Assembly: GCA_020059045.1 (NCBI GenBank)
Contig: JAGVCW010000018.1
Location: 25,320-89,319 of the forward strand
DNA: 64,000 nt
Source of the DNA: Minisyncoccota bacterium
GTDB lineage: Bacteria > Patescibacteriota > Minisyncoccia > Phycocordibacterales > Zambryskibacteraceae
Direction: 5' to 3'
Below, one piece after another: positions 1,733-47,451 of the stretch. The notes below the pieces were generated by a model that did no database searches, was not told the origin of the DNA, and was given only the letters and a program-made list of their open reading frames with translations. The translations under genes were made by a program, and so were the position numbers. The stretch's first letter is position 1. Each line of letters begins with the position of its first letter.

Positions 1733-3145
1733 TTAGTGTTTTGAAATCCGTGGTCCTTCCTGTAGGTCCTCAACCAGGTATCCTTTTGATTTTAGAATCT
1801 CACGAATCTCATCTGATTTCTTGAAATCCTTATTTTTTCTTGCATCTTCTCTTTCTGAAATAAGTGCTTGAATATCCGCAGGCAAGTTGTCGATATAAGT
1901 TATTTTCTCCTCCATGAATGAGTTCCCAAGACCGAGCCCCAACACTTTGTCAAATTGCAGAAGAGTATTTCGCTTCATATTTTCATTCAAGTCACTTTTG
2001 AGTACTTCCCAGGCGAGAGCAAGTGCTTCTGCCGTATTTAAATCATCCTCAATTACTGCCTTAAATTTGCTCATGTATTCCTCGTCTGGCGCGGCAGTAG
2101 CTTCCTCAAGCGAATGAAATTGTTTTAACAAATTTTCTAAGCCATTTTGAGCCCCACGGAGAGCCTCCCAGCTAAAGTTGGTTGGGGTTTTATAGTGTGA
2201 CCCAAGGAGTAGGTATCTGAGTGCAATTGGGGAAAATCCTTTCTCAATTATTTCAGATAGGTACACCACATTTCCATCTGATTTAGCAATTTTTGAATCA
2301 TTAATCTGCAAGTGAGCTCGGTGAAGCCAGTATCGCGAAAAAGGAGTTTTACCCGTAGCTGCCTCTGATTGAGCAATCTCGTTGTTGTGATGTATTGAGA
2401 CATGCTCTATACCTCCAGTATGTATATCAATCTGTGGGCCCAGTATTTTTATAATCATCGCAGAACACTCAATATGCCAGCCAGGAAACCCTTGTCCCCA
2501 CGGAGAAATCCATCCAATTTTCTCGTTAAATTTCCAAAGAGCAAAATCTTCTGAGTTGATTTTTTCTTGGTTTAGACCAATACGAGTTTGGCTTTCATCC
2601 TTTTTTAAGTTCAAGCCACCAAGCTCTCCATAGTTAGGAAACTTGGAAGTATCAAAGTAGATTCCATCCGAAGTTTTGTAGGCAAAACCTTTTTCTTCAA
2701 GTGCTTTGATTAATTCAATTTGCTCTGGAATGTAATCACTTGCATATGGGAAGGTGGTACCAACAGTATTTATATTTAATTTTTCTATGTCAGACAGGAA
2801 GATTTCAGCGTACTTTTTTCCAAGTAGTTTCATATTTTCGAGAGTTTGCTCCAGACCATCGTTTCTCAACCCTTTGGCCATTTTGTCTTCTCCTTCGTCT
2901 GGGGTACCAAGATTCTCTCCGGTTAGGTGCCCAAAGTCTGTGAAGTTAATGACTTGTTTTACCTCTAATCCGCCATGCTCGAGTGTGCGACGAAGAATGT
3001 CTGTAAAAACAAACATCGAAAGATTCCCAATATGCTGAACACCGTATACTGTAGGCCCGCAGTTATACATGCTTACCTTACCCTCCTGAATTGGTTTAAA
3101 CTCTTCTTTTTTACCAGTTAATGTATTTGTGAGATGCAAGGTCAT
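1733..3145 (-). CDS. cysS: cysteinyl-tRNA synthetase
   Basis: 470 aa class I aaRS. It carries the HIGH-type motif (CGPTVYGVQHIGN) and a KMSKS-like motif (KIAKSDG), with overall CysRS architecture. Confidence 0.92.
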   Translation of the reverse strand: MTLHLTNTLTGKKEEFKPIQEGKVSMYNCGPTVYGVQHIGNLSMFVFTDILRRTLEHGGLEVKQVINFTDFGHLTGENLGTPDEGEDKMAKGLRNDGLEQTLENMKLLGKKYAEIFLSDIEKLNINTVGTTFPYASDYIPEQIELIKALEEKGFAYKTSDGIYFDTSKFPNYGELGGLNLKKDESQTRIGLNQEKINSEDFALWKFNEKIGWISPWGQGFPGWHIECSAMIIKILGPQIDIHTGGIEHVSIHHNNEIAQSEAATGKTPFSRYWLHRAHLQINDSKIAKSDGNVVYLSEIIEKGFSPIALRYLLLGSHYKTPTNFSWEALRGAQNGLENLLKQFHSLEEATAAPDEEYMSKFKAVIEDDLNTAEALALAWEVLKSDLNENMKRNTLLQFDKVLGLGLGNSFMEEKITYIDNLPADIQALISEREDARKNKDFKKSDEIREILKSKGYLVEDLQEGPRISKH

Positions 3146-3234
3146 ATAGTTGAATAAAGAATAGCGAATATCGAGGGTGGAGTAAACATACTCTTAATTC
3201 ATCATTCCTTATTCCTTACTCTTCCTCCGACATC

Positions 3235-4152
3235 CTACAGCCAGTGCCTATGCTTAAAATAAGCAAACATGAGAAGACAGGCAAAAGCCATAATTCCGAG
3301 TATGTACCAGAAATCGTTCGGTGATCCAATGATAGGGACCGAATCAGCTTCAATGGAAAAGATAGCCGCAATAAGTGTTAGTGGGAATGTCACAAACGCC
3401 ATAATAGTTAGCGTTTTCATGATCTCATTTTCCTTTGTAGAAAGTATTGAATTGTTCGTTTCTCGTAGTTCAGCCACAAACTCCAGGTTATTTGTCAGAA
3501 TATTTTGAACCTTTGAGTACTCGTTTATTACGGACTTAATGTGGTGAGAGAAGTATTCTCCAAACATTCTGTGTCCGAACGAATCAAGCGAATCCAGGAT
3601 CTCCCGATGGAAAACTGTTATTTTTCTGAAGTTCAGTAGTTCGCGGCTCACTTCAGAGAGTGCACGAACCATTTCTTTCTCTTTTCCTTCAAATATATTT
3701 TTTTCAATTTTCGAGAGCCAATTATCAATATACTCAAGTTCGTTGAAAAGTGACATATAAATCTCATTTACAATACCAAAGAAGATTTCCCCGGTAATAT
3801 TTTCACCGAATCCCTTATCAAGTATTGTGTTAACCTCTACCACTTTTGCAAACTTGTCTACAGAGTCTATGGTGTCGTAGCGGGTAGTAATGAGGAAGTT
3901 CTTCCCAATGACGAAATCAATTTCCTGTCGGACCTCACTATCAGTATGGCTGTGTTTGAAAGCGGGGAAATGCAGAATAACGTATATATATTGTTTGTAG
4001 AGCTCTACTCTAGATTTGATAGTAGGGGAGATCAGCTCATGAGCAATATCTCTACTTAAAGAGAATTCCTCCATCACACTTCTGATCTCATCTTCTGTGG
4101 GTTTGGTGATATCTATCCAGACTACACCTCTGTAGTTATATCGATTTATCAT
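3235..4152 (-). CDS. CorA-family divalent cation transporter homologue lacking the GMN signature
   Basis: 305 aa with two C-terminal TM helices and a CorA-like C-terminus (LTIMAFVTFPLTLIAAIFSIEADSVP...YFKHRHWL). The position of the canonical YGMNF loop reads FSIEA instead. Confidence 0.75.
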   Translation of the reverse strand: MINRYNYRGVVWIDITKPTEDEIRSVMEEFSLSRDIAHELISPTIKSRVELYKQYIYVILHFPAFKHSHTDSEVRQEIDFVIGKNFLITTRYDTIDSVDKFAKVVEVNTILDKGFGENITGEIFFGIVNEIYMSLFNELEYIDNWLSKIEKNIFEGKEKEMVRALSEVSRELLNFRKITVFHREILDSLDSFGHRMFGEYFSHHIKSVINEYSKVQNILTNNLEFVAELRETNNSILSTKENEIMKTLTIMAFVTFPLTLIAAIFSIEADSVPIIGSPNDFWYILGIMAFACLLMFAYFKHRHWL

Positions 4153-4285: not shown

Positions 4286-5515
4286 ATGAATACATACAAC
4301 AAAAATATATACTCCGCAGTTGCGCTCGTTGCAGTGTTTATTCTTGTATTTTCACTAGGGTTTCAGTCTGGTGAAAAAAGCCGGCATCTTGGTGTAGAAA
4401 ATGTTGAGCTTCAAAACAAGGAGACTGATACGAAAGTTGAGGCCGATTTCGGAGCTTTCTGGAAAGCTTGGAATCTTATAAACGAAAAGTATGTTCCGGC
4501 CTCATCTACCCTGAAAGCGGTGACGGATGAGGAGAAAGTTTGGGGAGCTATTAGCGGACTTGCATCTTCACTCGATGATCCCTATACCGTGTTTCTTCCT
4601 CCTGTAGAAAATGAAATATTTGAAAGTGATGTGAGAGGTAATTTCGAAGGAGTTGGTATGGAAGTTGGCATTCGTGACGGAGTGCTCACAGTCATAGCGC
4701 CCCTCAAGGGAACCCCAGCTTACAATGCCGGGATTAAAACTGGTGACAGAATTACAAATATTGATGGAGTCACTACATACAATCTATCCACCGAAGAATC
4801 AGTGCTCCTTATACGGGGTGAGAAGGGGACAAGGGTAGTGTTTACAATAATTCGTGAGGGAAGCGACGAGCCTCTCGAGATTGGTGTTATAAGAGACGTA
4901 ATCAATATTCCTACTCTTTCGACAAGTCTACGTGCTGACGGTGTGTTTGTAATAGAGCTTTACAACTTTTCAGAGAATTCTCCGAACCTTTTCCGTGCGG
5001 CACTTCGTGAATTCGTGGACGCAAACACCGACAAGCTACTTCTCGACCTTCGCGGCAACCCAGGTGGTTACCTAGAAGCTTCCATAGATATGGCAAGCTG
5101 GTTCCTAGCACCCGGAAAAGTTGTGGTCCGAGAAGATTTCGCTGGAAAGCAAGAAGAAGTTATCCATCGAAGCAGGGGTTATGACATATTTAATAGCAAT
5201 CTCAAATTTGTAATACTTGTAAACGGCGGCTCCGCTTCTGCATCAGAAATTCTTGCTGGAGCGTTGAAGGAGCACGGTGTTGCTAAGCTTGTGGGGAACA
5301 AAACATTTGGCAAGGGCTCAGTCCAAGAGCTTATCAGTATTACTCCGGAGACGTCCCTCAAGGTCACCATCGCGCGGTGGCTTACTCCAAACGGTGTCTC
5401 AATTTCTGCAAGCGGTGTAGCACCTCACTTTGAAGTCAAGAATACTCCAGAGGATGTGAAAAATGGTGTTGACCGTGAGAAGGATAAAGCCATAGAGGTT
5501 CTCCTTAATTGGTAG
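4286..5515 (+). CDS. ctpA: carboxyl-terminal processing protease (S41 family, PDZ-containing)
   Basis: 409 aa with an N-terminal signal/TM segment, a PDZ-like segment, and the S41 catalytic region LDLRGNPGGYLEASIDMASWF...NGGSASASEILAGALKE. Confidence 0.88.
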   Translation: MNTYNKNIYSAVALVAVFILVFSLGFQSGEKSRHLGVENVELQNKETDTKVEADFGAFWKAWNLINEKYVPASSTLKAVTDEEKVWGAISGLASSLDDPYTVFLPPVENEIFESDVRGNFEGVGMEVGIRDGVLTVIAPLKGTPAYNAGIKTGDRITNIDGVTTYNLSTEESVLLIRGEKGTRVVFTIIREGSDEPLEIGVIRDVINIPTLSTSLRADGVFVIELYNFSENSPNLFRAALREFVDANTDKLLLDLRGNPGGYLEASIDMASWFLAPGKVVVREDFAGKQEEVIHRSRGYDIFNSNLKFVILVNGGSASASEILAGALKEHGVAKLVGNKTFGKGSVQELISITPETSLKVTIARWLTPNGVSISASGVAPHFEVKNTPEDVKNGVDREKDKAIEVLLNW

Positions 5516-5715: not shown

Positions 5716-6163
5716 GAAGGTAATACTACTAAAAGATGTGCCAAAGATTGGTAAGAAATATGAGGTCAAGAACGTGGCTGAAGGTCATGCTCTCAATTTT
5801 CTTATACCCCGGGGTCTAGTTGAGACTGCCACAAAGAGCGCTTTAGAGAAGGTTAAGACTTACAAGACTCAAGATGAAGCAAGGAGGAAAATACAGGAAG
5901 ACCTACTTCTGAAAAATATTGCGGATCTCGAGGGTGTAAAGATAGAGATGAGCGAAACAGCGAATGACAAGGGTCACCTTTTTGCAGGTATTCACAAAGA
6001 AGAGATAATCCCAGAAATTTCAAAACAGACTAAGCTTGAGATTCTTCCAGAGCACCTTCTGCTTGATAAGCCTATTAAGTCTGTCGGTGAACATATAATA
6101 GAAGTCAAAATCAGAGATACTCACGCCAAATTCACTCTAATTGTAAGCGCAAAGACAGATTAA
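5714..6163 (+). CDS. rplI: 50S ribosomal protein L9
   Basis: 149 aa, MKVILLKDVPKIGKKYEVKNVAEGHALNFLIPRGL..., canonical L9 N-terminus. Confidence 0.9.
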   Translation: MKVILLKDVPKIGKKYEVKNVAEGHALNFLIPRGLVETATKSALEKVKTYKTQDEARRKIQEDLLLKNIADLEGVKIEMSETANDKGHLFAGIHKEEIIPEISKQTKLEILPEHLLLDKPIKSVGEHIIEVKIRDTHAKFTLIVSAKTD

Positions 6164-6214
6164 ACTAACAAGCGGCAAAGTTATTATAGGCTAAACATAT
6201 AAAAGAAAGACCCG

Positions 6215-6650
6215 GAGCGAAACGCTCACGGGCCCGTACTGCATGTATGCAAAGTCCAATTTCTGGACTGAAAGATCTTAACCCGCTTGCCGAACACCTG
6301 GCTCTCGGCCGGCAAGCGGGTCGTGTTCAGAGGAAGCTCGAGTGCTGCCTCGTCATGGGAGTGGATGCGGTTTCACTCCGATTACAGTGTGCCCGGCCGG
6401 GGCTCCGCATCAGCGCTTCCACCTCGTTGGAGACGGTCGCTTTCCCAAACACTTATTAGACCCTTGCGCCGTTTTTTACCAGCACGCTTAGGTGGTTTGA
6501 GCATGACTCGACAGCCTTCCTTTGAACACCCACCTCGGTTTCTTCCCCGGCTGTGAGGGAGGACTTCTGACTACCCCGAGGTGTCACTTACTTGTTTAAC
6601 CTGCCCTGGAGCTTCTGCCGGGACCCAAAGGGACCCCACAGGCGCTAGCA
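6215..6650 (-). ncRNA. rnpB: RNase P RNA (bacterial type), probable
   Basis: A GC-rich ~430 nt non-coding block. The minus strand carries GCTCCAGGGCAGG (compare E. coli GCUCCAUAGGGCAGG), an upstream GTCCCGGCAGAAGCTCC (P4 5' strand-like), and a 3' ACGACCCGCTTGCCGGCC (compare ACAGAACCCGGCUUA). A terminator-like hairpin plus U-run lies at its 3' end (about 6210-6235). The only ORFs here are short and overlapping. Confidence 0.55.
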
Positions 6651-6800
6651 GATATTTGTTCCTACATGTCCTGTAACTAGCTCCAGAGCATTCTATTATC
6701 TATTATAGCATGCCCACTTTTTTTGTCAAGCAATTTAGCATGAAAATAGAAAAAACTTTGCTAGACAATCAAAATAAGCCTTAAAACAAAGCTTTTTTCA

Positions 6801-6831
6801 AAAATGTTAAACACTCGGTGTTTAACATTTT
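6801..6831. terminator. bidirectional intrinsic terminator (perfect 14 bp inverted repeat flanked by A- and T-runs)
   Basis: AAAATGTTAAACACtcgGTGTTTAACATTTT lies between rnpB and rpmA on the minus strand. Confidence 0.6.
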
Positions 6832-6849
6832 AGAATCAAAATAATATAT

Positions 6850-7065
6850 AAAAAAAGATCCTGCAGGTTGCATTCGCCTCCTCTTTACTCCTCACTCTTA
6901 ATTCTCTGCTCCTAATTCTTTATTCTCCATTCCTCATTCTACGATTCATCATTCATTCTTCTCCCTTTCCACTGCACTCATTATTTTAGTAGTTAGATCA
7001 ATTAGAAATTCTCTCCCTTACTCCTCATTCTTCCCCCGCTCTTGCTACGTTGTTGGTTGTCGGTG
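6850..7065. repeat. polypyrimidine (+ strand) ATTCNT/TCCTCATTC-rich tract, locus A, containing a 39 bp core shared with locus B (6979-7017)
   Basis: Low-complexity CT-rich + strand run (tcctcattc, attcat repeats). The core cattattttagtagttagatcaattagaaattctctccc matches 37848-37886 at 35 of 39 positions. Confidence 0.6.
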
Positions 7066-7081
7066 GTTGGTTGTAAGTTCT

Positions 7082-7354
7082 CTACACCACCTGTATTACC
7101 TTCTTCACAATAATTTTATTATTAAAGTGTATTTTTCTTTTACTTTTCATTTGGACAATCCCATCCTTGAGTGCAAATATAGTGTGGTCTCTGCCAATAG
7201 AAGTGTTTTTTCCTGGCATTACATCTGTGCCTCTCTGACGCACGAGAATAGACCCAGTATACGTCTGGGTTCCGGGTGTGACCTTAATCCCCAGATATTT
7301 TGGGTTTGAGTCTCTTCCGTTTTTTGTCGATCCTCCCGCTTTCTTTGTTGCCAT
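7082..7354 (-). CDS. rpmA: 50S ribosomal protein L27
   Basis: 90 aa, [25 protein letters not shown]..., canonical L27. Confidence 0.92.
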
Positions 7355-7407
7355 GTGTATTGAAACTTATTCGTATATTAGTATGCTTAACCTATAAATA
7401 ACAGGCT

Positions 7408-7914
7408 ATGAGTATACAAGAAGAGGGAGAGAAAGACAAGCAGGGAAATAGCTTAGAAACAGACATAACTGAAGAGGAATTTGACATTGTGCCTTCAAAC
7501 GGAGCTGTCGCAAAGACTTCTCCGTGGAAGCATGTAGTAAGCATTCTTATTATTGTTCTAGTTGGCACAGCATCTTTTGGTCTTGGGAGACTCTCTTTTT
7601 ACGAGAAGAAAACAGCCCCGGTTACAATTGAGACAAGTGTGATAGAGCCTAGAAGTGAAGAGGTTTCTGGGGAAGTGAAGGGTGCCTCAGTTGCAATCCC
7701 TACTACCATTACAAACAAGCCGCCTGTTGCACCAGCCCAAGCACCAACTGCCGGGGAAGAGGTGGTTGCGTCAAGAAGCGGTAGCAAGTACCACTATCCA
7801 TGGTGTGCCGGCGCGAAACAAATTGCAGATAAGAACAAAATAGTTTTTCAATCATTTGAAAGCGCTAGAGCTGCAGGCTATACCCCAGCTGCAAATTGCA
7901 AAGGGCTTAGGTAA
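7408..7914 (+). CDS. membrane-anchored protein with a C-terminal Ada-like (Ada_Zn_binding-type) Cys/AGY domain
   Basis: 168 aa with an acidic N-terminus and one TM helix (VVSILIIVLVGTASFGLG). The C-terminus KYHYPWCAGAKQIADKNKIVFQSFESARAAGYTPAANCKG resembles the Ada N-terminal metal-binding consensus (C...N.v.F.s.eeA.aaGYrPC). Confidence 0.4.
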   Translation: MSIQEEGEKDKQGNSLETDITEEEFDIVPSNGAVAKTSPWKHVVSILIIVLVGTASFGLGRLSFYEKKTAPVTIETSVIEPRSEEVSGEVKGASVAIPTTITNKPPVAPAQAPTAGEEVVASRSGSKYHYPWCAGAKQIADKNKIVFQSFESARAAGYTPAANCKGLR

Positions 7915-7952
7915 TCCTAAATAATTCTTTATACTTAGTAGCCTAGATTACT

Positions 7953-8195
7953 ATGCCGAAAAAATATAAAATTATTTTTCTACAAACTGCGGGATTTCTC
8001 TTATTTGTGCTTGGAGTTATTTCTCTTTTTCTACCTTTTTTACAGGGTATAATATTTATCATATGCGGCCTCTATCTCATGTCTCTTAGTAATCCAAAGT
8101 ATGAAAAATTATTTAATGAAAGCCTCTCGAAGTTTCCCAGATTACATCGTATGTATATCCGTTTTCATAATAAAATAAAAGAATGGTTATTGTAG
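7953..8195 (+). CDS. small two-TM membrane protein (DUF454/YbaN-like?)
   Basis: 80 aa, with hydrophobic segments FLQTAGFLLFVLGVISLFLPFLQGIIFIICGLYLM. Confidence 0.35.
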   Translation: MPKKYKIIFLQTAGFLLFVLGVISLFLPFLQGIIFIICGLYLMSLSNPKYEKLFNESLSKFPRLHRMYIRFHNKIKEWLL

Positions 8196-8770
8196 ATGTA
8201 GAGACTACAGGTACAGACCCAAACAAGCACTCTCTTGTAAGCATTGGTGCAGTTGAGTTTGAGCGGCCAGATAGGCAATTTTACGAAGAGTGCCGGATTT
8301 GGGATGGAGCTCATATGGATCCAGAAGCACTTCAAATAAACGGTTTAAGTGAAAGTGATGTTACCGATCCGTCAAAGCAGACGGAAGCTGAACTTGTAGC
8401 AAATTTTAGTAGGTGGACCGAGGGGTGCACTGACCTCGTCATTGCTGGACAAAATGTTTTCTTCGACATGCGATTTATTGAGCAAGCCGCATTAAGAGCA
8501 GGTGTTTCAGTGTCCTTTTCAAGAAGAATAGTAGATAACCACTCAATTACTTATTACCACATGAGAAAACGTCGAATAACGCCGCCACTACATGGTCGCA
8601 AGACCAATCTCGATTCGGATACCATAATGGCTTATGTTGGTATCCCAGTAGAGCCGAAGCCGCACAATGGGCTGAATGGTGCGATCTGGGAAGCAGAAGC
8701 ACTTCACAGACTAATGTTTGATAAACCACTTTTTGATCGATTTAAAATACACGCGATTCCTTGGCTTTAA
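8183..8770 (+). CDS. DEDD-family 3'-5' exonuclease (DnaQ-like)
   Basis: 195 aa. The Exo I motif MVIVDVETTGTDP sits at the N-terminus, followed by a DEDDh-type fold pattern. Confidence 0.75.
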   Translation: MVIVDVETTGTDPNKHSLVSIGAVEFERPDRQFYEECRIWDGAHMDPEALQINGLSESDVTDPSKQTEAELVANFSRWTEGCTDLVIAGQNVFFDMRFIEQAALRAGVSVSFSRRIVDNHSITYYHMRKRRITPPLHGRKTNLDSDTIMAYVGIPVEPKPHNGLNGAIWEAEALHRLMFDKPLFDRFKIHAIPWL

Positions 8771-8781
8771 CACTAAAGTTA

Positions 8782-8860
8782 AAAAGTGGTTGTTATAATT
8801 TTTTTATCATAAATACTGCCGATGGACAGTATTTATGATAATATTGATTACCACTTTTTT
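8782..8860. terminator. long imperfect palindrome / bidirectional terminator
   Basis: AAAAGTGGT...ATCATAAATACTGccgatggaCAGTATTTATGAT...ACCACTTTTTT. It has a 13 bp inner stem plus an outer stem, with a T-run after it. Confidence 0.55.
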
Positions 8861-8919
8861 AAGTAACACAGTTTTAGGTACACACACATTTGACATACTA
8901 GGGATTATGATGTAACATC

Positions 8920-9363
8920 ATGAAAGCGTTGGAAACCCCAACACCTTCCTCAATGAGGAAGTCCCGCTCTTTAACGGAGACCATCTTGGCGGATGACCTG
9001 GAAGTAGAGACCGCGGATGAATCTAGCTCGGAGTCCCAAATTTTTCGAAAAAAGGTCGTTGGTATGGCTCTTATCAGAGCCTTGTTACTCAACGACGAGG
9101 ATAGTGACGGAGGAGAGCTTGAGGCTCGAGTAATCAAATTGATGGTTAGGGATGTTATTGAGGAAGATCGAAGAAAGGGTGGAGATGATTCATTCCGCGA
9201 TGCGGCAAAAAAGTTCTTGAGTGACATCAAGTCTTCTGACATTGGCGTTACCGGGGTTGAAAGTTCTACGTGTGGGAGTAGTAAAAATCTTTTTCATACA
9301 AAACAAAGCCGTCTCGTGGAGAGACGGCTTACCGGATTTTTGGCCACGCCGGTGTGGGCTTAG
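8920..9363 (+). CDS. hypothetical acidic, low-complexity protein (doubtful)
   Basis: 147 aa ORF in the GC-rich island, preceded by TTGACA-N17-TAACAT directly abutting the ATG. Composition is acidic and disorder-like. It overlaps a competing minus-strand ORF. Confidence 0.25.
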   Translation: MKALETPTPSSMRKSRSLTETILADDLEVETADESSSESQIFRKKVVGMALIRALLLNDEDSDGGELEARVIKLMVRDVIEEDRRKGGDDSFRDAAKKFLSDIKSSDIGVTGVESSTCGSSKNLFHTKQSRLVERRLTGFLATPVWA

Positions 9364-9724
9364 GGTTCAGTCGAACTTCGTGTGGGGGGGGTACCCCAGC
9401 CTGGATCATCGAGGCGATCGCGACGACCGCCTCGATTCTGACGAAGCTTTCGGCAATCTGCGTCGGGCCGAAGGTTCGACGAACCAGTTCCGACAGGAAC
9501 CGGTGCCAAACCTCAGCACTAGGCGAGCCGTTCAGCGTGAACGACTGACTTCGCAGACTGGCGATGAATCTCTCAGCGTAGCCGAGATATTCATCTGCGT
9601 TCACTCCGTAGTAGCAGTGGAGTGGGTCAACCGTGTTGAATGCTTCCAACACGATCGAACCTAGCTCACCGTTACTCGTGAGAAAACCCTCCACTTTCTG
9701 CCGGGGGTTGGTGGCTGCGGTCAT
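9329..9724 (-). CDS. hypothetical protein encoded in a GC-rich island
   Basis: 131 aa, with an AGGAGG RBS 4 nt upstream of the ATG (minus strand). Local GC is clearly higher than the rest of the window. No recognisable family. Confidence 0.5.
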   Translation of the reverse strand: MTAATNPRQKVEGFLTSNGELGSIVLEAFNTVDPLHCYYGVNADEYLGYAERFIASLRSQSFTLNGSPSAEVWHRFLSELVRRTFGPTQIAESFVRIEAVVAIASMIQAGVPPPHEVRLNPKPTPAWPKIR

Positions 9725-9902
9725 GCTTCCTCCTGGTTGCGGGTTAAGGGGGTTTGTATTGGTCCCTGCATATTGTCCCGACTAACCACTAGAGCATTTC
9801 CGCTGTGCCAAGGAGCTACTTATACATACTAGCATACTTGATCCCTAAAGTCAAGTACTAAATTTTACAAATAGAAAAAAACTGCTAAGATAAAGGATAT
9901 AA

Positions 9903-11186
9903 ATGATTAGAAGGATAAATCAAAAGCTCTCGCATCTTCAGACCGACCTATCCGTCGGCTTCTTTCTTGCATGGCGTCAGGTCAAGCGATCAAGCCTTGC
10001 GACTACATTGCTTATCATTTTTGTGATGATGCTCACGTTTCTCAATCTCGTTGTTGTGCGAGGTATTCTTGTGGGTCTTCTACAGGGTTCCACAGAAGCT
10101 TACAAGGCACGATTTGCAGGCGACATCATACTTACCAATCTGCCTAAGAAAGATTTTATTGAGAACAGCCCTTCAGTTATAGAAGTAGCAGAGAACCTTC
10201 CTTGGGTAGAGCATCTCACGTACAGATATGTTGACGGTGGCACAGTTGAAGCTGGTTACAAAACAAGAGTGAGTCTCACCGATGACCCCAATTCCACTGC
10301 CGGCTCAGTTGTTGGTATTAATCCAGAAGTTGAAGACAGAGCCACAGGACTTGCGGGCACAGTTCTTGAGGGTAGGTATCTTACTCCCGAGGATTCAGAG
10401 GGCATCCTAATTGGTGCCAATATGCTCAAGAAATATCTTGATATAGAAGCTCCAGGGCTCACTCTTCTTGAAAATGTTGCAGTGGGTGACAAAGTCAGAC
10501 TTACGATAGGTGATACTCGCAAGGAGTTTGTTATTAGAGGGTTTCTTCAAAGCAAGGTAGACCAAGTCGATTTCCGGATGTTTATACTTGATTCTACTTT
10601 CCGCAACATGACAGGTCGGAGTGATTTCAATGTTGACGAAGTTACTCTTGTCTTGAAACCCGGCAGTGATCCCGAGCTTGCGAAGAGTGCTCTCATTGCA
10701 TCCGGCGTAGACAAGTACGCTCGGGTTCAAACTTGGGAAGAGTCTCTACCCAAGTTTCTTCTTGATATTCAGAACACCTTCGGTCTACTTGGAAACGTAG
10801 TTGGCTCAATCGGTCTTGTCGTGGCATCAATCACTATTTTCATTGTTATCTTCGTTAACGCCATAACTAGGAAGAAATATATTGGAATTCTAAAGGGTAT
10901 TGGAATTGATAGTACAGCTCTAGAATTCACATATGTGATGCAGTCAGCTTTTTATGCCGTTGCTGGTACACTTCTTGGTCTTTTAGTTCTTTATGGATTT
11001 CTAGTGCCGTTTGTGACGGCGCACCCTATTAAATTTCCGTTTAGTGATGGAATACTTGTTGCAGAAATACCTAATACTCTCGTAAGGGCTGGGCTCCTGC
11101 TTCTTGCTACCCTAATCGCAGGATATATTCCCGCACGTATTGTAGTGAAGCAGAATACACTGGACGCTATTCTTGGTAGAAAATAA
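9903..11186 (+). CDS. ABC transporter permease, FtsX/MacB-like
   Basis: 427 aa. It has an N-terminal TM helix, a large periplasmic domain and C-terminal 3-TM FtsX-like helices. An AAGGA RBS sits upstream. Confidence 0.82.
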   Translation: MIRRINQKLSHLQTDLSVGFFLAWRQVKRSSLATTLLIIFVMMLTFLNLVVVRGILVGLLQGSTEAYKARFAGDIILTNLPKKDFIENSPSVIEVAENLPWVEHLTYRYVDGGTVEAGYKTRVSLTDDPNSTAGSVVGINPEVEDRATGLAGTVLEGRYLTPEDSEGILIGANMLKKYLDIEAPGLTLLENVAVGDKVRLTIGDTRKEFVIRGFLQSKVDQVDFRMFILDSTFRNMTGRSDFNVDEVTLVLKPGSDPELAKSALIASGVDKYARVQTWEESLPKFLLDIQNTFGLLGNVVGSIGLVVASITIFIVIFVNAITRKKYIGILKGIGIDSTALEFTYVMQSAFYAVAGTLLGLLVLYGFLVPFVTAHPIKFPFSDGILVAEIPNTLVRAGLLLLATLIAGYIPARIVVKQNTLDAILGRK

Positions 11187-17508: not shown

Positions 17509-18378
17509 CCAGTTATTCACTAAAGTTCTGTGTCCATAAAATTATCGAAGGGTCCCTCGTTATTGGCAAACTAAAATATAGCTCAATGAAACTTGCTTTT
17601 TAATCTATTTCGTGCTAATGTTATGGGAGTTAGTTCCATTAAATACTTTGCGTTCTCTCAGGAACCTTCGTCCTTCATTTCTCACAGATCACTGTGTGAA
17701 GCGAAGGGGGAGGCAGCCTGATTAGGGCAATGCAGGCATAAGTCGTGCCCGCCCAAGCTTCTCTCAACTTTACTTGTATGAAAATACTACGAGTTGTAGG
17801 GCTTGGACTTGCAATAGTCATGCTCAAGTTCCTAGTTCCTAGAATCTTTTTAGGAATCGAGAATGTCCTCCTCACGTTCTTTGATACCTTGGGGTCTATT
17901 TTTTCTCAGGTTAACCCGTCCGTAGACAGTGGCGCCGCGAGCATCGAGGCGACTCCGTTTCTTCATAGCAAATAGATTCCAAGAGGAGTCCTCGAGGCCA
18001 TTGCCCGAGGACTTTTCGTTATCCACAGGCCAGCACTTGCATGGTGAACCAGAGTTCACTAGAATAGTAACAAAGAGAGTAATGAATTATCAATTACTAC
18101 TTACTTACAACTAATTACTATTACAATGAGTGGAAACAAACTAGTTAGCACAATTTCAAGGGAGATTGAAAACTTGAATGAGGTCATTGATCTCAAAGTG
18201 ATACAAGGTATTCCTTACAAAAGGGAAGCGAAGAGACACAGATTACTTTTAAACATGTTACACGATGTGTCAGGCAAAATATCTTCAAATTCTTACAGCT
18301 TTTTATCCTTCCTACTATGAATTTATTCGTATTAATTCGTGTATTCGTATAATTCGTTGATTCGTATGTTTACTTAAA

Positions 18379-18951
18379 ATGAACAAAAAATTAGAACAAA
18401 AAGATAAGCTCCTAGATTTTTACAAGAAGAACCGCCGAATGCCCGGTTACAAGGAGATTATGGATTTACTTGGTTTTAAGTCTAAGAATTCTGTTCACAA
18501 GCTCATTACATGGTTAGTGGAGGAGGGGATAGTGTCGAAGGATGGTCAAGGCAGGATCATCCCGAACCAAATTTACGATGAGATCCCTATTCTTGGTCTT
18601 GTTGAAGCTGGTATGCCAAGTGAAGCAGATGTAGATGAGCTCGATCGGGTAAGTCTCGAAGAGTTTCTTATCGAAGACAAAGAGAAAAGTTATCTACTCG
18701 AAGTGAAGGGCGACTCCATGATAGACGCGCATATTAGCGAAGGGGACTATGTTTTAGTTGAGCGCAAAGGTGAGCCTCGAGAAGGAGACATTGTGATTGC
18801 CGAAGTAGATGGGGGATGGACCATGAAGTATTATCGCAAGAAAGGTGGCAAGCCTTACCTTGAACCTGCAAACCGGAAGTACAAACCCATTTTCCCAACA
18901 GAGAGTTTCCACGTTGCCGCAATTGTTAAAGCTATAATTAGGAAACTCTAG
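18379..18951 (+). CDS. lexA: LexA-family transcriptional repressor (S24 peptidase)
   Basis: 190 aa with an N-terminal winged-helix domain and the cleavage-site region LVEAGMPSE. The catalytic Ser lies in GDSM and the Lys in IVIAEVDGGWTMKYYRKKG. Confidence 0.85.
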   Translation: MNKKLEQKDKLLDFYKKNRRMPGYKEIMDLLGFKSKNSVHKLITWLVEEGIVSKDGQGRIIPNQIYDEIPILGLVEAGMPSEADVDELDRVSLEEFLIEDKEKSYLLEVKGDSMIDAHISEGDYVLVERKGEPREGDIVIAEVDGGWTMKYYRKKGGKPYLEPANRKYKPIFPTESFHVAAIVKAIIRKL

Positions 18952-21095: not shown

Positions 21096-21393
21096 TTTGG
21101 GTCTTTTTAATATATTTGTGATTAATACTAGGTAGCCTTAAATAGACAAAATAGGATGACTATGACATATAGACAGGGTAGGGGAGTTGTGTTCTAGCAT
21201 TGCTATCCACATTTTAAAGATGCAATAAAAAAGAGATAATAGATGAAACCAGTTGCGGGGTTTAGTTAAAAGATAAACATTAAGATCCTATGAACACAGA
21301 AGAATATACAAGTAGTAACACTGTTTCATTCTCCGATTTACCAGACGTCGAGGACCCCGCAAACCAATACATCTGTGAATCCTGTGCATAAAG

Positions 21394-21424
21394 AAAAATC
21401 CTGACTCGTAGTCAGGGTTTTTTG
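21394..21424. terminator. bidirectional intrinsic terminator
   Basis: AAAAATCCTGACtcgtaGTCAGGGTTTTTTG, directly at the 3' end of the 21412-21699 minus gene. Confidence 0.6.
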
Positions 21425-21699
21425 TCATTGTTTCCATTTTTGTAAAGCCTTTTAAAGTAGTTTACAGTTGTCTTCATCTCAAGCTTCCAAAGCGGTAGAA
21501 ACATTCGAAAGAAAACTGAAAACAAGAGAAAGGCGAGTAGTGCAAGAATTGTAAGAGCAATCCCATAGAGAGGTCGTCTCTCAAAAACTATCACAAGCAG
21601 CAGAAGTCCGGTCCCTGTTGCAAGGCTTGCAGTATTGAGCAATGCTAGCCATGTGTAGCGAAGCTGGTAGAGTAGTCCATGTTGGTTGACTCTGCTCAT
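21412..21699 (-). CDS. small 2-TM membrane protein
   Basis: 95 aa, hydrophobic. Confidence 0.4.
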   Translation of the reverse strand: MSRVNQHGLLYQLRYTWLALLNTASLATGTGLLLLVIVFERRPLYGIALTILALLAFLLFSVFFRMFLPLWKLEMKTTVNYFKRLYKNGNNDKKP

Positions 21700-22129
21700 T
21701 TGTTCTCGACGGCTTGAAGTGTTGAAGTAAAAGAGCGGAAAGAAAATCTAAACTAACTATAGCTATATTTTATTTTATGTCCATTTTAAAACTAAAGGTA
21801 TATTTGGTAGATCCTTAAAGGGAAGTGATTTTAGTAGGAGCTTCCTAAGTATATGAACGTCGCACAATATATCTTTTACGACATTAAACTAGGTACATAA
21901 GATCGAGCCACTCCCCTAGTAACAAAAAAAATAAAAAAGAGGATTTATATTTTATGTACTTATTTAATTTAATTCCCCATCAATCAAGCAGGTCTTCCCA
22001 CCACTTAAACGTGTAATGCAAAAAAATGTACATTGGTACGTAAATTGGAGCCAACAGGAAAAATATGACAATTTTGGCTGTTTTCATTTTAGAACCTGTT
22101 ATATTACTTATTTTAAAATTTCTGTCTAA

Positions 22130-31505: not shown

Positions 31506-31728
31506 TACAATGTGTCAAATTATAGCCTAAACAAGCCATTTCCCTAACAATTGACTTATACAAACTCCGTGCTATAATTTTGCTCATCTTGTTCTTCCGA
31601 GTGAGTCTGAAGTGTATCTCGCGCGTTAATCAAATTTCTTGTCCGCTTGCATCTAAGGCAGCAGATTTTTTAATTTTCAATTTTCTAAACTTATCCAACT
31701 TATACAACATATTAAACTTATCAACTAA

Positions 31729-33024
31729 CTACGGGTTAAGCCTTTTTACATCCCTTGGCAAGAATGTTGCCTCTCTCACGTTAGGCAGATCAAGTATTTT
31801 CATTATGAAGCGCCCTGGTCCAATACCAGCACCACCATGTGGCGGCACGCCAAAGCGAAAGAAGTTTATATAGTCACGAAGTGGTTCTAGATCCATTCCT
31901 TTTTCAAGAGCATGTTTTTCCAGAATCTCTGGTCGGTGCTCGCGCTGGGCAAGTGTAGTTACTTCAAGTCCTCTGTATATAAGATCAGCTCTTCGAGCAA
32001 ATTCTGGGTTATCAGGATGCCTCATGTGATAGAAAGCACTTCTTGACTTGTGATAATCCATGAGGAAAACAAACTCATGGTCATATTTTTCCCTCACATA
32101 CTCATATAGTGCCTTCTCCTCTTCAGGTGATATGTCATAAGGCTCACTACTAGGTACCCCTTTTCCAGCTAATATTTTTTTTGCGTCAACCATACTTATT
32201 CGTGGGAATGGTCTTTTCGGTACGGTTATAGCTGTCAGAGGATAAGCCGCGAGTATTGATTCAAAGCCAGATACAATCATTCCTTCTTCGGCATCCATAA
32301 CATCGTGATGTGATTCGACGAACCCCATCTCGAAGTCCCAGCCAGTAAATTCTGTAAGATGTCTTGTGGTAAACGAGTGTTCCGCTCGAAATACTGGACC
32401 AACCATACAAACTTTCTCAAATCCTGAAGCAATAGCCATTTGTTTATAAAATTGTGGCGATTGGGCAAGGTATGCTTTACGATCGAAATACTCCACAGTG
32501 AAGACTTCCGCCCCTGTCTCAGACGGGGTTGACATAAATGCCGGTGGATATACTTGTATAAAGTCATTTTCTGACCAGTACTTTCTCCAACCTTTTTCAA
32601 ATTCTGTCCAAACTTTAAATATCTGTGTTTTCTCAGGCTTACGTAGATCAATCCATCTATAATCGAATCTTACAGGAGCCTCTGTTTCCTCTCCACCCTT
32701 TAAGGTAACGACTGGTATTGGGAGTTCGGGCTCTGAAGCCGATAGTACTTGGAGATCTTCAATTTGTATTTCAAAGCCACCTGGTGCATTAGTTTCCTTC
32801 TTTACACTTCCTGTTATGCGAACTACGGACTCTAAAGTTAGATCCTTTGCGCTTTCAAAGGTTTGGCTATCCTTTGTAATAACAACTTGCACAATACCAG
32901 TCACATCTCTAAGTACTAGGAAAATAATCTTGCTCTGGATACGGAGGGCCTGTGCAAACCCCTGAAGAGTAATACTTTTTCCTTCGTGACTTGCCAAATC
33001 TTTAGTATGAATTGCCTTAAGCAT
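31729..33024 (-). CDS. class IIb aspartyl/asparaginyl-tRNA synthetase (compact type)
   Basis: 431 aa with an N-terminal OB anticodon-binding domain and class II motifs 2/3 (FRAEHSFTTRHLTEF...GGAGIGPGRF). Asp versus Asn specificity cannot be resolved from the sequence alone. Confidence 0.82.
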   Translation of the reverse strand: MLKAIHTKDLASHEGKSITLQGFAQALRIQSKIIFLVLRDVTGIVQVVITKDSQTFESAKDLTLESVVRITGSVKKETNAPGGFEIQIEDLQVLSASEPELPIPVVTLKGGEETEAPVRFDYRWIDLRKPEKTQIFKVWTEFEKGWRKYWSENDFIQVYPPAFMSTPSETGAEVFTVEYFDRKAYLAQSPQFYKQMAIASGFEKVCMVGPVFRAEHSFTTRHLTEFTGWDFEMGFVESHHDVMDAEEGMIVSGFESILAAYPLTAITVPKRPFPRISMVDAKKILAGKGVPSSEPYDISPEEEKALYEYVREKYDHEFVFLMDYHKSRSAFYHMRHPDNPEFARRADLIYRGLEVTTLAQREHRPEILEKHALEKGMDLEPLRDYINFFRFGVPPHGGAGIGPGRFIMKILDLPNVREATFLPRDVKRLNP

Positions 33025-33070
33025 TTTAGATTAAATTAGTTCACTTGGGTTAATTAGAAATTAGGTTAAT

Positions 33071-34069
33071 TTACTCTAAATTCACCCCTATTCTCTCTTT
33101 AACTTCACTCATCTTCTCCTCAGTCCTTTCCCTAGCTCTCTCTCTACCTTCTTTTAGGACTCCAAGTACGTAATCCTTATCGCGAACAATCTTTTCACGC
33201 TTTTCACGAAGAGGTGCAATAAAATTAATAATATTTTTTATTAGGATTTCCTTAGATTCTTTATACCCTATTTTTCCAGTCTCGTACCTGTCTTCTAGGT
33301 CCTCAAGCTCCGTACCATCTGTAAAGAATTTGTGAAGTGCAAAGATTTTGTCAGTCAGTGGATCCTTCACATCACTTACATCTTTAGAGTCAGTAGGAAT
33401 CTTCATTATCGCAGTTCTAACATCAGCGTCCGAGGCAAAAAGTTCAATTGTATTTTTGTAGCTTTTACTCATTTTCTGTCCGTCTGTTCCAGGAACAGTT
33501 TGGGTCGTTTCCATAATAAGTGCTTGGGGGGGTTTAAATGTCTCGCCGAAGATGCGATTGAATTTTATTGCAACATCTCGAGCAATCTCAATGTGTTGCT
33601 TCTGATCAAGTCCCACAGGTACCACATCTGCATCATAGAGAAGTATGTCAGCCGCCATAAGCATTGGATAGTTGAAAGTCCCAACATTAATCTCCTTGTT
33701 TTTAGCTTCAGCATCTTTGAATGCGTGTGCTCTCATAAGGTATGGCATAGAAGTAATAGTGCTAAATATCCAAGAAAGCTCCGTGTGCGCCGCCACATCA
33801 GATTGCTTGAAAATACTATTTTTCTTAGGGTCAAGGCCAATTGCAAGGTAGTCCACTGCGAGATTGTAGGTCAGGTCTCTCATTTCATCCGCGTTCTGTA
33901 TAAAGTTTAAAGCATGGTAATCCACAATAGCAAAAAAACATTCGTAATCATTTTGAAGATCTACAAACTGCTTCATTGCCCCAAGGTAGTTTGCTACATG
34001 AGGTCGTCCAGTAGGTTTCACACCAGACAAGAGTATTTTGCCATCCTTCATATGGAAAAATAATACCAA
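33071..34069 (-). CDS. trpS: tryptophanyl-tRNA synthetase
   Basis: 332 aa class Ic enzyme. It has SGVKPTGRPHVANYLGA (HIGH-type) and KMSKS, with a size typical of TrpRS. Confidence 0.88.
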   Translation of the reverse strand: MVLFFHMKDGKILLSGVKPTGRPHVANYLGAMKQFVDLQNDYECFFAIVDYHALNFIQNADEMRDLTYNLAVDYLAIGLDPKKNSIFKQSDVAAHTELSWIFSTITSMPYLMRAHAFKDAEAKNKEINVGTFNYPMLMAADILLYDADVVPVGLDQKQHIEIARDVAIKFNRIFGETFKPPQALIMETTQTVPGTDGQKMSKSYKNTIELFASDADVRTAIMKIPTDSKDVSDVKDPLTDKIFALHKFFTDGTELEDLEDRYETGKIGYKESKEILIKNIINFIAPLREKREKIVRDKDYVLGVLKEGRERARERTEEKMSEVKERIGVNLE

Positions 34070-37562: not shown

Positions 37563-37799
37563 GAAAGCCTACTGATTAAGCAGCAACTTCTCCTTCTGCT
37601 CCTTCCTCCTTTGGTTTAACTGGATTCATAGGATCCATTGCTGGGTCCTGGGTGTTATTTGGTTCCATGATGATTTATAGTACTTAGAATGCTAATAATC
37701 TAGCTGTATTCGACTCCAAACGGCCTCTCTTGCCGAAAAATAATACTCGACGATTAGCCGAGTCCCTCTAAGTATACAGCACTCAATTCTAAATTGCAA

Positions 37800-39578: not shown

Positions 39579-39594
39579 ATGAGATATTATAACC

Positions 39595-44481: not shown

Positions 44482-45372
44482 CTAGTTTGAGGCGTCAATG
44501 CTCCTCCAAGAAGCAAAAATGGACATAGGAAGTAGGCGATTTGAGTCCTTGTGCTTTAGAGCAAGTTCTCCTTTCTCAGTTTTTCCTTTGTAACCTTGTG
44601 TAACGTCTAAGAGCAAGTTTTCGAGCGAAATCGCCGAAAGATCTGTTGAATACATATTCAAAATAATAAACAGAGGTTTGTCACTAAGCAGTTTTCCGCA
44701 TTCTGTAAGTAGTGGCAGTAAATTTTCCTCAATTTTCCATACTTCACCTTTTGGCCCCTTACCATAGCTTGGCGGGTCCATCACTATCGCATCATACCTC
44801 TGTCCCCTCTTCACCTCTCTTTTAAGAAATTTAAGGGCGTCATCAATTATCCATCGAATAGGTGTGTTTTCTAGCCGAGATAATTTTTGATTCTCCTTTG
44901 CCCAGTCAATTGTATTTTTTGACCCATCCACATGAGTTACTTTTGCACCAGTCCGTGCAAGTGCAAGTGTTGCAAGCCCAGTGTAGCCGAATAAGTTGAG
45001 GGCATTGATTTGTCTACCACTTTTCCTCACAAGTTCCTCCATCCATCTCCACTCCTCAACCTGCTCGGGGAATACTCCAATATGCTTTGACGTTCCGCCA
45101 AGCATAATTTTCGCCTTAAAGCCGAATGTTTCAATCTCAAATTGGTGAGGAACACTGTTCTTGTATACCCAACTACCTTTAGAAACTTTTTCGAATCGTG
45201 CTTGGGCTTTATCCCACTCAACTTTGGGCAAGATCGGATTCCACCAGGCTCTTGGCTCGCTTCTCACTATTGTTATACCTCCAACTCTTTCCAATTTTTT
45301 ACCCAGGCCTGAATCCAGAAGTTCGTACCCCTTTCCGTCATTAGTCCAAACTTTAATATGTTCCGGGGTCAT
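44482..45372 (-). CDS. class I SAM-dependent methyltransferase, RlmI/YccW-like (rRNA m5C family)
   Basis: 296 aa. The motifs LNLFGYTGLATLALARTGAKVTHVD (motif I) and IVMDPPSYG (motif IV, DPPS) are present. Confidence 0.7.
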   Translation of the reverse strand: MTPEHIKVWTNDGKGYELLDSGLGKKLERVGGITIVRSEPRAWWNPILPKVEWDKAQARFEKVSKGSWVYKNSVPHQFEIETFGFKAKIMLGGTSKHIGVFPEQVEEWRWMEELVRKSGRQINALNLFGYTGLATLALARTGAKVTHVDGSKNTIDWAKENQKLSRLENTPIRWIIDDALKFLKREVKRGQRYDAIVMDPPSYGKGPKGEVWKIEENLLPLLTECGKLLSDKPLFIILNMYSTDLSAISLENLLLDVTQGYKGKTEKGELALKHKDSNRLLPMSIFASWRSIDASN

Positions 45373-47422: not shown

Positions 47423-47451
47423 ACCCCTTATCCCTCCTTATTCCTCATTCT

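Follow-up and report, generated by a model that had tools for sequence, protein, structure and literature searches.

Several intergenic spacers in a 64,000-nucleotide stretch of DNA from a Minisyncoccota bacterium (contig JAGVCW010000018.1, positions 25,320 to 89,319, here called the window) carry tracts that are rich in pyrimidines on the plus strand, and two of these tracts, one after the ribosomal protein gene rpmA and one after a histidine kinase gene, share a 39-bp core. This raises the question of what kind of DNA fills these spacers and what sets the strand on which it lies. An earlier note, made from the sequence alone, had proposed an origin linked to the replication strand or to a specific element, with a protein-binding array, a small RNA or a decayed mobile element as possible roles. 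The reading that we favour, at a probability of roughly 0.6, is that two kinds of spacer DNA are present: heptamer arrays oriented by transcription, and solo arms of a palindromic element that is spread across the Candidate Phyla Radiation (CPR). For the window this would make the tracts transcription-oriented simple-sequence spacers with element remnants, neither a replication signal nor an obvious regulator; the finding there is real and its function ordinary. The main interest lies outside the window, in a CPR palindromic element of heptamer-like arrays that doubles as an rRNA intervening sequence.

Heptamer arrays at the 3' ends of genes

Tracts rich in pyrimidines on the plus strand were confirmed at 3190-3232, 6873-7051, 37875-37935 and 47424-47481, and a fifth GAAT array, which the earlier note had missed, lies at the stop codon of the L13 gene (51250-51275). 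The repeating unit is seven nucleotides long, ATTCNNN on the plus strand and NNNGAAT on the minus strand, rather than the six-nucleotide ATTCNT first proposed, and the sequence before lexA (18324-18367), which had been counted as a CT-rich member of the same family, is not CT-rich and is a different feature. The arrays and the sequences that adjoin them are listed here (TRF, Tandem Repeats Finder).

3146 to 3234, minus strand: corA-cysS spacer hairpin with a complete heptamer array (from folding and sequence)
6802 to 6871, no strand assigned: end of the rpmA 3' region, with a CCTGCAGG palindrome, a T7 run and an AT-flanked hairpin aaatgttaaacac-cgag-tgtttaacattt (sequence reading)
6870 to 6977, minus strand: long tract of degenerate, purine-rich GAAT heptamers 3' of rpmA, TRF period 21
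7018 to 7045, minus strand: degenerate, purine-rich GAAT heptamers, GGGGGAAGAATGAGGAGTAAGGGAGAG, between core copy 1 and the rpmA stop
7046 to 7078, minus strand: CAACCAA-type short repeats directly 3' of the rpmA stop at 7082 (sequence reading)
37889 to 37935, minus strand: GAAT purine heptamers overlapping the terminal codons and stop (37911) of the kinase gene (Pfam HisKA and HATPase_c)
47424 to 47481, minus strand: GAAT heptamers AAGAAT AATGAAT AAAGAAT GAGGAAT AAGGAGG across the grpE stop at 47452 (TRF and lag scan)
51250 to 51275, minus strand: GAAT heptamers AAGAATA GCGAATA GAGAATA encoding the final residues and stop of rplM (L13)

TRF gave periods of 7, 14 and 21 at 3204, 6887 and 47435, and a lag scan of the window found three arrays at a lag of 7 and none at lags of 4-6, 8, 10 or 11. 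Chains of ATTC with a spacing of 6-8 nt were observed six times, compared to 0.2 times in Markov shuffles. The units run head to tail, lie in non-coding DNA (all window arrays are in spacers, or overlap terminal codons only) and go beyond compositional expectation, as is usual for heptamer simple repeats. From composition alone the enrichment is modest, with six 40-nt windows of at least 85% pyrimidine observed compared to 1.0 in the Markov shuffle and 2.5 in a block (local) shuffle that reached a maximum of 8. Over all of the intergenic DNA of the window the lag-7 autocorrelation was only about 2 standard deviations above that of other lags, and the heptamer phenomenon is therefore limited to a few spacers. 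These spacers resemble one another directly, with BLAST matches between the kinase and grpE tracts (E = 4e-7), the kinase and corA tracts (E = 1e-4) and the rpmA and corA tracts (E = 4e-4). Ordinary AT-rich intergenic composition, acting by chance, would fit the modest pyrimidine excess and the weak lag-7 signal, but we consider it extremely unlikely, and as an account of the core and of the mutual similarity of the tracts, which runs from E = 1e-4 to 3.5e-11, it is refuted; the excess of ATTC chains and the recurrence of the core in other loci, described below, stand against it as well.

All of the window tracts do have their pyrimidines on the same strand, as had been stated, but the further claim that this holds regardless of gene orientation does not stand, as each tract follows a minus-strand gene. 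The genes concerned were identified by Pfam.

1733 to 3145, minus strand: CysS (tRNA-synt_1e)
3235 to 4152, minus strand: CorA
7082 to 7354, minus strand: ribosomal protein L27 (rpmA)
18379 to 18951, plus strand: LexA-like S24 peptidase
37911 to 39578, minus strand: HisKA/HATPase_c kinase
45441 to 47360, minus strand: DnaK
47452 to 48195, minus strand: GrpE
51250 to 51621, minus strand: ribosomal protein L13 (rplM)

The tracts begin at, just after or overlapping the stop codons of the minus-strand corA, rpmA, kinase, grpE and rplM genes, and the purines of all five lie on the sense strand of the preceding gene. The nearest relative, at a syntenic locus (L014), carries two heptamer arrays, one after rplI (TGGGTGAATGATGAATGGGGAAT) and one after a gene for a 153-amino acid protein (AAAATAG AAAGATG AAAATAG...), each followed by a terminator hairpin. 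These lie opposite the rpmA strand, yet on the sense strand of their own genes; with both loci set in the same orientation (rpmA plus), the rpmA tract of the window is on the rpmA sense strand. Across all of the loci compared, approximately 10 intergenic tracts obey this sense-strand rule and one breaks it. GC skew in the window tracks gene orientation, and so gives no independent replication signal, and no DnaA-box cluster was found in the window. Polarity is thus linked to transcription and not to replication, contrary to the replication-strand origin that had been suggested. A skewed motif tied to the replication strand, with a polarity like that of KOPS or Chi, would explain the single strand polarity of the window copies and could call on a GC-skew switch near 22 kb, but it is contradicted by the present data and is very unlikely: that switch separates the tracts at 3.2 and 6.9 kb from those at 37.8, 47.4 and 51.2 kb with no change of strand, and the L014 arrays run the opposite way in step with their own genes. 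The switch itself falls at approximately 21100-22130, where gene orientation and skew go from mostly plus to all minus across about 1 kb of mostly non-coding DNA, which is possibly a replication terminus or a mere operon boundary; an origin or terminus (oriC/ter) near 22 kb was considered and set aside as there was no DnaA-box cluster.

We suggest, with moderate to low confidence, that the NNNGAAT arrays on the sense strand arise by slipped-strand mispairing at the 3' ends of minus-strand genes, where they would supply the last codons or the stop and then an unstructured, purine-rich spacer before a terminator, a promoter or a start codon. The direction of transcription sets their polarity; they are lineage-specific, absent from orthologous sites, and best regarded as tolerated simple-sequence DNA of the kind seen in the short tandemly repeated repetitive (STRR) sequences of cyanobacteria. 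An intercistronic hairpin is predicted at the one spacer, between corA and cysS, in which ATTC units in inverted orientation come after the GAAT units. There the minus strand reads, in order, the corA stop, GGAATAA GGAATGA TGAAT, a small central hairpin, ATTCGCT ATTCTTT ATTC and the cysS ATG, and the spacer folds at -27.1 kcal/mol (z = -2.5, with 5 of 200 shuffles equally stable), a hairpin that results from this meeting of the two arrays.

Comparison with relatives shows that the arrays are not conserved. The L27 protein of the window has 72-79% identity to L27 from metagenome-assembled genomes (MAGs) of Zambryskibacteria and Parcubacteria, with which the local order of rpmA, rplI, an S41 protease gene and corA is shared, and the host is therefore a member of the Patescibacteria (CPR). 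In the window the grpE array is directly followed by the dnaK promoter (TTGACA at 47422-47417, 17 nt, TACAAT at 47399-47394); the grpE-dnaK spacers of L053 (from the assembly of L014) and L054 keep a TTGACA/TATAAT promoter and lack the purine tract, and the window GrpE is longer than those of its relatives by 3-4 residues. The rpmA-rplI spacer is only 38 bp in L016 and L017, and in L014 and L015 it holds unrelated small open reading frames (ORFs) with their own promoters and no Pfam domain. In the corA-cysS spacer of a Zambryskibacteria relative, GCTTTTA GCTTTTA GCTTAAA stands just 5' of the cysS ATG (L017 6058-6090, L016 5902-5934); the L017 array matches the GAAT/ATTC hairpin of the window in position and is unrelated to it in unit, and this recurrence of position with sequence left free is the pattern expected of slippage in situ. 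Repeats of the form (GAATRRR)n were also matched in viral contigs, where 241 of the 276 matches listed have three identical successive units, and being mostly perfect they belong to a generic class of simple repeat.

Two further observations concern these sites. The spacer between the convergent rpmA and rplI genes is a hot spot of variation, approximately 918 bp in the window (6164-7081, holding the tract and a candidate RNA gene described in the last section) compared to 3274-3763 in L014, 3274-3988 in L015 and 3274-3311 in L016. The viral contigs (L057-L136, giant-virus MAGs among them; for example L059 3166-3274 and L057 1774-1798) contain at least 120 stretches of perfect (GAATAGA)n, (GAATAAA)n and (GAATGGA)n.

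A function as RNA is an alternative for the tract after rpmA. On this explanation the minus-strand transcript of ~6870-7045 would be an unstructured RNA derived from the 3' untranslated region, titrating a CsrA-, S1- or Csp-like protein or the anti-Shine-Dalgarno sequence of 16S rRNA. The rpmA stop and the terminator-like hairpins are approximately 190 purine-rich nt apart, and the RNA is significantly unstructured (z = +1.7 and +2.5, with 196-200 of 200 dinucleotide shuffles folding better); the grpE and kinase tract RNAs have no more structure than shuffles. Four-mers resembling Shine-Dalgarno (SD) words number 17 in 6870-7045, a region that takes in core copy 1 and 7018-7045, compared to 9.2 ± 3.4 in shuffles, and GGA occurs 10 times in 176 nt. 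S1, Csp or CsrA have been suggested as binders of heptamer repeats elsewhere (MacGregor 2015, PMC4679880). We nevertheless regard a functional RNA as unlikely, as in the relatives this site is a 38-bp spacer or is occupied by unrelated inserts, no promoter belonging to the tract itself was found, and the host scarcely uses SD sequences, with SD-like words ahead of only 10 of the 64 start codons of window genes. The resemblance to the sponge RNAs CsrB and RsmZ extends to the numerous GGA motifs in a non-coding transcript region; in the window tract these lie outside hairpin loops, in an RNA that is unstructured, promoterless and unconserved.

None of the window tracts is an intrinsic terminator, as there was no hairpin in their folds and none was called by a terminator scan. 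The hairpin at 6802-6871 looks like a two-way terminator; a simple scan did not call it, as it has fewer than three G-C pairs. Small ORFs in the rpmA tract are not credible (only frames of 10 and 30 amino acids are present, the latter crossing the terminator hairpin), and a role for the tracts as SD or standby sites was rejected given the few SD-preceded starts, the likely leaderless mRNAs and the lack of any ORF after the rpmA tract. Stop codons in all three frames, although present in all arrays, were not taken as a selected property, as AT-rich spacers have them anyway. Many window genes have a TATAAT box 6-8 nt 5' of their ATG (for example at 39579-39603, 57226-57250 and 63744-63768), which suggests that leaderless mRNAs are widespread in the host organism.

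The core as one arm of a palindromic element

The two 39-bp cores (6979-7017 and 37848-37886) agree at 35 of 39 positions, as the earlier note had it, with no mismatch at the 35 fixed sites, and no match to them was found in 100 shuffles. Their similarity reaches approximately 42 nt (6978-7019 against 37847-37888), and 56 nt align at 82% identity (E = 3.5e-11). Both match the arm consensus TTTTAG-AAATTAG(A/G)TCAATTAG-AAATT and they are the only significant matches to the arm profile in the 64-kb window; one further spacer, the third line below, shares the repeat vocabulary of the core and matches the profile weakly (E = 1.3).

6978 to 7019, minus strand: core copy 1, a solo arm, reading TTTTAGTAGTTAGATCAATTAGAAATT on the plus strand, with the 5'-arm form ...CTAATTGATCTAA... 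in the mRNA sense (nhmmer E = 1.1e-5)
37847 to 37888, minus strand: core copy 2, a solo arm, reading TTTTAGAAATTAGATCAATTAGGAATT on the plus strand (nhmmer E = 9.7e-7)
33025 to 33070, minus strand: CTAATT-type spacer CCTAATTTCTAATTAACCC...ACTAATTTAATCTAAA between the stop of ORF 33071..34069 and the ATG of ORF 31729..33024

That the core might occur by chance was answered by its recurrence in 48 loci elsewhere and never in shuffles. These loci came from a search with the pattern TTTTAGNNNTTAGATCAATTAGNAATT in one genome per species, in JGI metagenomes and in viral contigs. The core 27-mer was present at 13 genome loci, from at least eight CPR phyla plus Omnitrophota (the hosts being Liptonbacteria, Berkelbacteria, Saccharibacteria, Moranbacteria, Sungbacteria, Zambryskibacteria, Levybacteria, Paceibacteria, an Omnitrophota MAG and the cyanobacterium Microcoleus), and at 35 further loci in the JGI metagenomes. 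It was absent from the viral contigs scanned, and carriage by phage was rejected on these zero matches.

Of 30 non-redundant loci, 16 have the core as the 3' arm of a palindrome of 100-160 nt and the other 14 have it as a solo arm. The palindrome consists of (CTAATTNN)n, CTAAATAAAT, a central hairpin of CCCAAT type, a run of T4-T7 and (AATTAGN)n, and it folds with z = -4 to -7. Outwith the window the core begins with the T4-T7 run directly after the hairpin, and complete elements may thus contain a terminator. The majority of core copies read TTTTAGAAATTAGATCAATTAGAAATT(AG). The arm profile found additional copies within the same loci, among which GGTC/GACC is commoner than the GATC of the window, so that the embedded GATC, which had been singled out as notable, is a variant of the commoner arm form and nothing suggests a Dam-type methylation site. 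A comparison of G-U with A-C mismatches, meant to show whether the hairpin is selected as RNA, was abandoned as confounded: the search pattern imposed the rarer GATC on one arm, and the partner arm has the commoner GACC. No Rfam family matched the palindromes, the only matches in the related loci being to tRNA, rRNA and glmS, and TIGR arrays or CRISPR did not fit, their architecture being mismatched.

Elements fill spacers downstream of genes. Co-directional contexts number 17 (9 ++ and 8 --), with 7 convergent (+-) and 1 divergent (-+), so that a gene end lies on at least one side in 24 of 25 classifiable contexts, and the end of the core is typically ~5-20 nt from the next start or stop codon. 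Among the sites with named genes are dnaK-dnaJ, the spacer that precedes rplD and one that separates split transketolase genes. At dnaK-dnaJ the L010 locus is near-identical to L006 and L043, the element being ~95% identical compared to ~83% for the adjacent dnaJ coding sequence (our own count), and the element looks more conserved than the neighbouring gene; the label of L010 as a Gammaproteobacteria MAG is probably a binning error, L006 and L043 being Patescibacteria.

Both window cores share the placement of the family, downstream of a gene 3' end and filling the spacer (64 nt from the rpmA stop for copy 1 and 25 nt from the kinase stop for copy 2). Neither has a reverse-complement partner arm nearby in the window, and they fold no better than shuffles (z = +0.1 and +1.7). 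They are probably remnants of the hairpin-forming element which have lost, or never had, a partner arm, and we suggest with moderate to low confidence that they are most likely inert within the GAAT arrays. A promoter within the core was rejected by eye, as its TTGATC or TTGACC resembles a -35 box with no properly spaced -10 in either orientation and its TAGAAA words make poor -10 boxes. Downstream of core copy 2, the minus strand of 37530-37805 has a promoter (TTGCAA at 37799-37794, 17 nt, TATACT at 37776-37771) followed by a leader of ~100 nt, a 30-amino acid ORF (37576..37668; MEPNNTQDPAMDPMNPVKPKEEGAEGEVAA) and a hairpin terminator.

Heptamer arrays are common in the loci that carry the core. 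A lag scan of 209 kb of non-redundant CPR loci gave 36 arrays at a lag of 7, 24 at a lag of 14 and 0-9 at other lags, compared to none at a lag of 7 in a 50-kb E. coli control; these loci were chosen for carrying the core, so that the density of arrays is biased upward and their period is not. The units include GGTCAAT, AGCCATC, GCTTTAA, GACATTT and AATTAGA. The Omnitrophota MAG locus (L013) is very dense, with 16 heptamer arrays in 8 kb (for example at 1370-2075, 5068-5409 and 6682-7103), units of GGTCAAT, AGCCATC and AGCTATA, and two direct AATTAG core copies, and this density means that the phenomenon is not confined to the CPR.

Copies within a 23S rRNA gene and kinship with known repeats

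The metagenome locus L020 is a 23S rRNA gene (5948-11054, minus strand), with a full-length Rfam large-subunit match of 5107 nt to a model of 2925 positions. Alignment to E. coli rrlH placed four element copies within it, after positions ~133, 269-290, 540-552 (helix 25) and 1181 (helix 45).

L020, 9228 to 9392: element copy (alignment)
L020, 10005 to 10180: element copy (alignment)
L020, 10478 to 10652: element copy (alignment)
L020, 10755 to 10905: element copy (alignment)

Each copy forms one long hairpin of 150-175 nt at -51 to -67 kcal/mol (-60 to -67 kcal/mol for those at helices 25 and 45), and the copies are 82-98% identical, copies 3 and 4 sharing 98%, which is consistent with recent copying. 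By eye, no target duplication was evident at the four insertion sites. As these copies lie within a 23S gene the element has been inserted, and it is probably mobile; this also gives partial support to the earlier suggestion of an element-specific origin or decayed mobile element, in so far as the core is an arm of a repeat family of many CPR phyla that includes near-identical 23S copies. The rRNA transcript would contain long double-stranded hairpins of the type excised by RNase III, and the RNA is likely to be a substrate of that enzyme; mobility and RNase III processing are both put forward with moderate to low confidence. Another insertion, of ~890 nt and containing a long ORF, lies further 3' in the same gene and may be an intron with a homing endonuclease.

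In Salmonella, Coxiella and others, 23S intervening sequences (IVSs) are classically found at helices 25 and 45, and RNase III excises them without religation (PMC4990558, PMC11270868). For CPR 23S genes, Tsurumaki et al. (2024) described numerous short insertions at these positions that were uncharacterised and that they considered "probably" IVSs of the RNase III type; their text makes no mention of palindromes, repeats or intergenic copies (PMC11270868). L020 resembles the IVSs in having the complete element at exactly helices 25 and 45, plus two further sites, in the form of a long extended hairpin. This correspondence of insertion site applies to L020 only, since the window copies are neither in rRNA nor hairpins, and classical IVSs are not reported in families that also populate intergenic spacers.

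The element also has the appearance of the small palindromic repeats of other bacteria. REP/BIME, the Correia elements of Neisseria, ERIC and RUP/BOX are non-autonomous, multicopy, located downstream of genes and co-transcribed with them, and RNase III acts on the Correia hairpins, which change the stability of mRNAs. Like these, the CPR palindromes are imperfect, 100-160 nt long and 3' of genes. Unlike them, they have arms of heptamer-like arrays and a sequence that is cross-phylum rather than species-specific, and no target duplication, strict terminal inverted repeat or cognate transposase or RAYT was identified, no systematic search for transposases having been made.

DNA binding is another possible role, in which the arrays and core would be sites for a nucleoid-associated protein, a regulator or a DNA-uptake receptor reading GAAT or AATTAG. 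The 27-mer is base-exact in unrelated contexts across CPR phyla, the arrays adjoin promoters (that of dnaK and that downstream of the kinase gene), and heptamer repeats of Nostoc modulate the action of LexA and NtcA at the recO promoter (bioRxiv 10.1101/2022.06.06.494920). Against this, a period of 7 bp is unlike the helical repeat of most arrayed DNA binders, two significant arm matches in 64 kb are far below the density of uptake sequences, divergent promoter regions are avoided (1 of 25 contexts), and the 23S copies point to an RNA or mobile-element nature and not to regulation; we consider this explanation improbable, on a par with that of a functional RNA.

For the heptamer arrays the closest comparison is with cyanobacteria, whose STRR heptamer repeats were reportedly described by Mazel in 1990. 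Both are tandem units of 7 nt in 3-8 copies, intergenic, beside start or stop codons and with several units per genome. The units can be nearly the same (CCCAAT, TGACCAA/GACCAAT), those of the CPR being near the STRR and Nostoc units CCCCAAT, TTGGTCA and GACCAAT, and the core pattern itself matched STRR-type arrays of Microcoleus (L003 and L050). The arrays differ from STRRs in lineage (Patescibacteria, with an Omnitrophota contig), in their GAATRRR and CTAATTN units, in the degeneracy of the window arrays and in that CPR arrays are often paired as the inverted arms of a long hairpin. They are thus not STRRs in the strict sense, in which the canonical CCCCAGT, TTGGTCA and CAACAGT belong to heterocystous cyanobacteria; the present host is a relative of Zambryskibacteria.

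Among the long simple repeats of prokaryotes, those with heptanucleotide units are the most frequent, and slippage of the polymerase has been given as their origin (Mrazek 2007, as cited in PMC4679880). In Beggiatoaceae, Cyanobacteria and Bacteroidetes, TAACTGA heptamers occur just 5' of start codons where spacers are SD-poor (MacGregor 2015, PMC4679880), and Nostoc heptamers beside start codons affect recF and recO expression by an unknown route (bioRxiv 10.1101/2022.06.06.494920). The TAACTGA repeats are like the CPR arrays in being heptamer direct repeats a few nt from start codons where SD sites are few, in having stop codons in the forward unit, and in a distribution over distant lineages that suggests horizontal spread. 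They differ in sequence, and the GAAT arrays of the window follow stops and do not precede starts; the TAACTGA repeats are predicted to be unstructured, whereas the AATTAG arrays of the CPR are usually one arm of a palindrome. No paper linking the CPR with heptamer repeats was found in a literature search.

Several points weigh against our reading of the tracts as transcription-oriented arrays with remnant arms. Slippage, mobility and RNase III cleavage are all steps that we infer. The window arrays are degenerate and are therefore old or constrained, and not actively slipping. The approximately twofold enrichment of SD-like words (GGAG/GAGG/AGGA) in 6870-7045 could point to an RNA function. 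The 27-mer is nucleotide-exact across phyla, and this, together with the higher identity of the element (~95%) than of dnaJ (~83%), implies that complete elements are constrained and that the window arms may not be inert. For this genome the copy counts are those of the 64-kb window. The descriptive account of the tracts and of the family can be given with high confidence.

A broader proposal, which we rate somewhat below even odds, is that a previously undescribed, CPR-wide mobile hairpin element fills spacers and 23S helix loops (25 and 45 included), accounts for many of the CPR rRNA insertions and supplies RNase III sites in operons, with heptamer arrays of STRR type being general in the spacers of the CPR and some Omnitrophota. 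The arms of this element would be heptamer-like CTAATT/AATTAG arrays, with a sequence kept to the nucleotide from one phylum to the next. If the proposal is true, a shared mechanism that generates or recognises heptamers would be hinted at. CPR genomes are thought to be streamlined, yet the core-bearing spacers examined, a biased set, are full of 7-nt arrays and a shared palindrome that also invades rRNA. Confirmation would link three subjects that have been treated apart, namely the short insertions of CPR rRNA, intergenic hairpins with a possible role in the control of mRNA processing and the long-unexplained heptamer repeats of cyanobacteria, and would make the 27-mer a simple sequence handle for their study in metatranscriptomes.

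Other features of the window

The window is approximately 41% G+C and densely coding. A tRNA scan and an Rfam search at the gathering threshold found no tRNA and no Rfam family in the whole of it, and nothing was matched in 6150-7100 with the Rfam cut-off relaxed to E <= 1.

Next to the rpmA tract, the minus strand of 6205-6695 is a G+C-rich, non-coding stretch of ~490 nt, preceded by a perfect sigma-70 promoter (TTGACA, 16 nt, TG-TATAAT, at 6729-6702) and ending in a GC hairpin and T-run. It folds at -209 kcal/mol (z = -5.6, with none of 100 shuffles as stable), no ORF of more than 45 amino acids is present on this strand, Rfam gave no match with the cut-off relaxed to E <= 1, and the stretch is a candidate for a new large structured RNA.

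The repeats before lexA (18324-18367, plus strand) are five direct copies of ATTCGT(A/G) with a period of 8-9, placed around a TATAAT just 5' of the lexA ATG (18379), and are possibly the LexA operator and promoter region. Another heptamer array on the minus strand (45376-45417, ACTTAGT ACTTAGA ACTTAGA ... ACTTAGT ACTTAAT) extends from the 3' side of the dnaK stop and ends 3 nt short of the ATG of a SAM-methyltransferase gene (44482..45372), a position that resembles that of the TAACTGA-type repeats. Right after the stop of ORF 31729..33024, the minus strand of 31655-31726 carries ATAAGTT repeats with a period of 9-10 together with AAAATTG heptamers.

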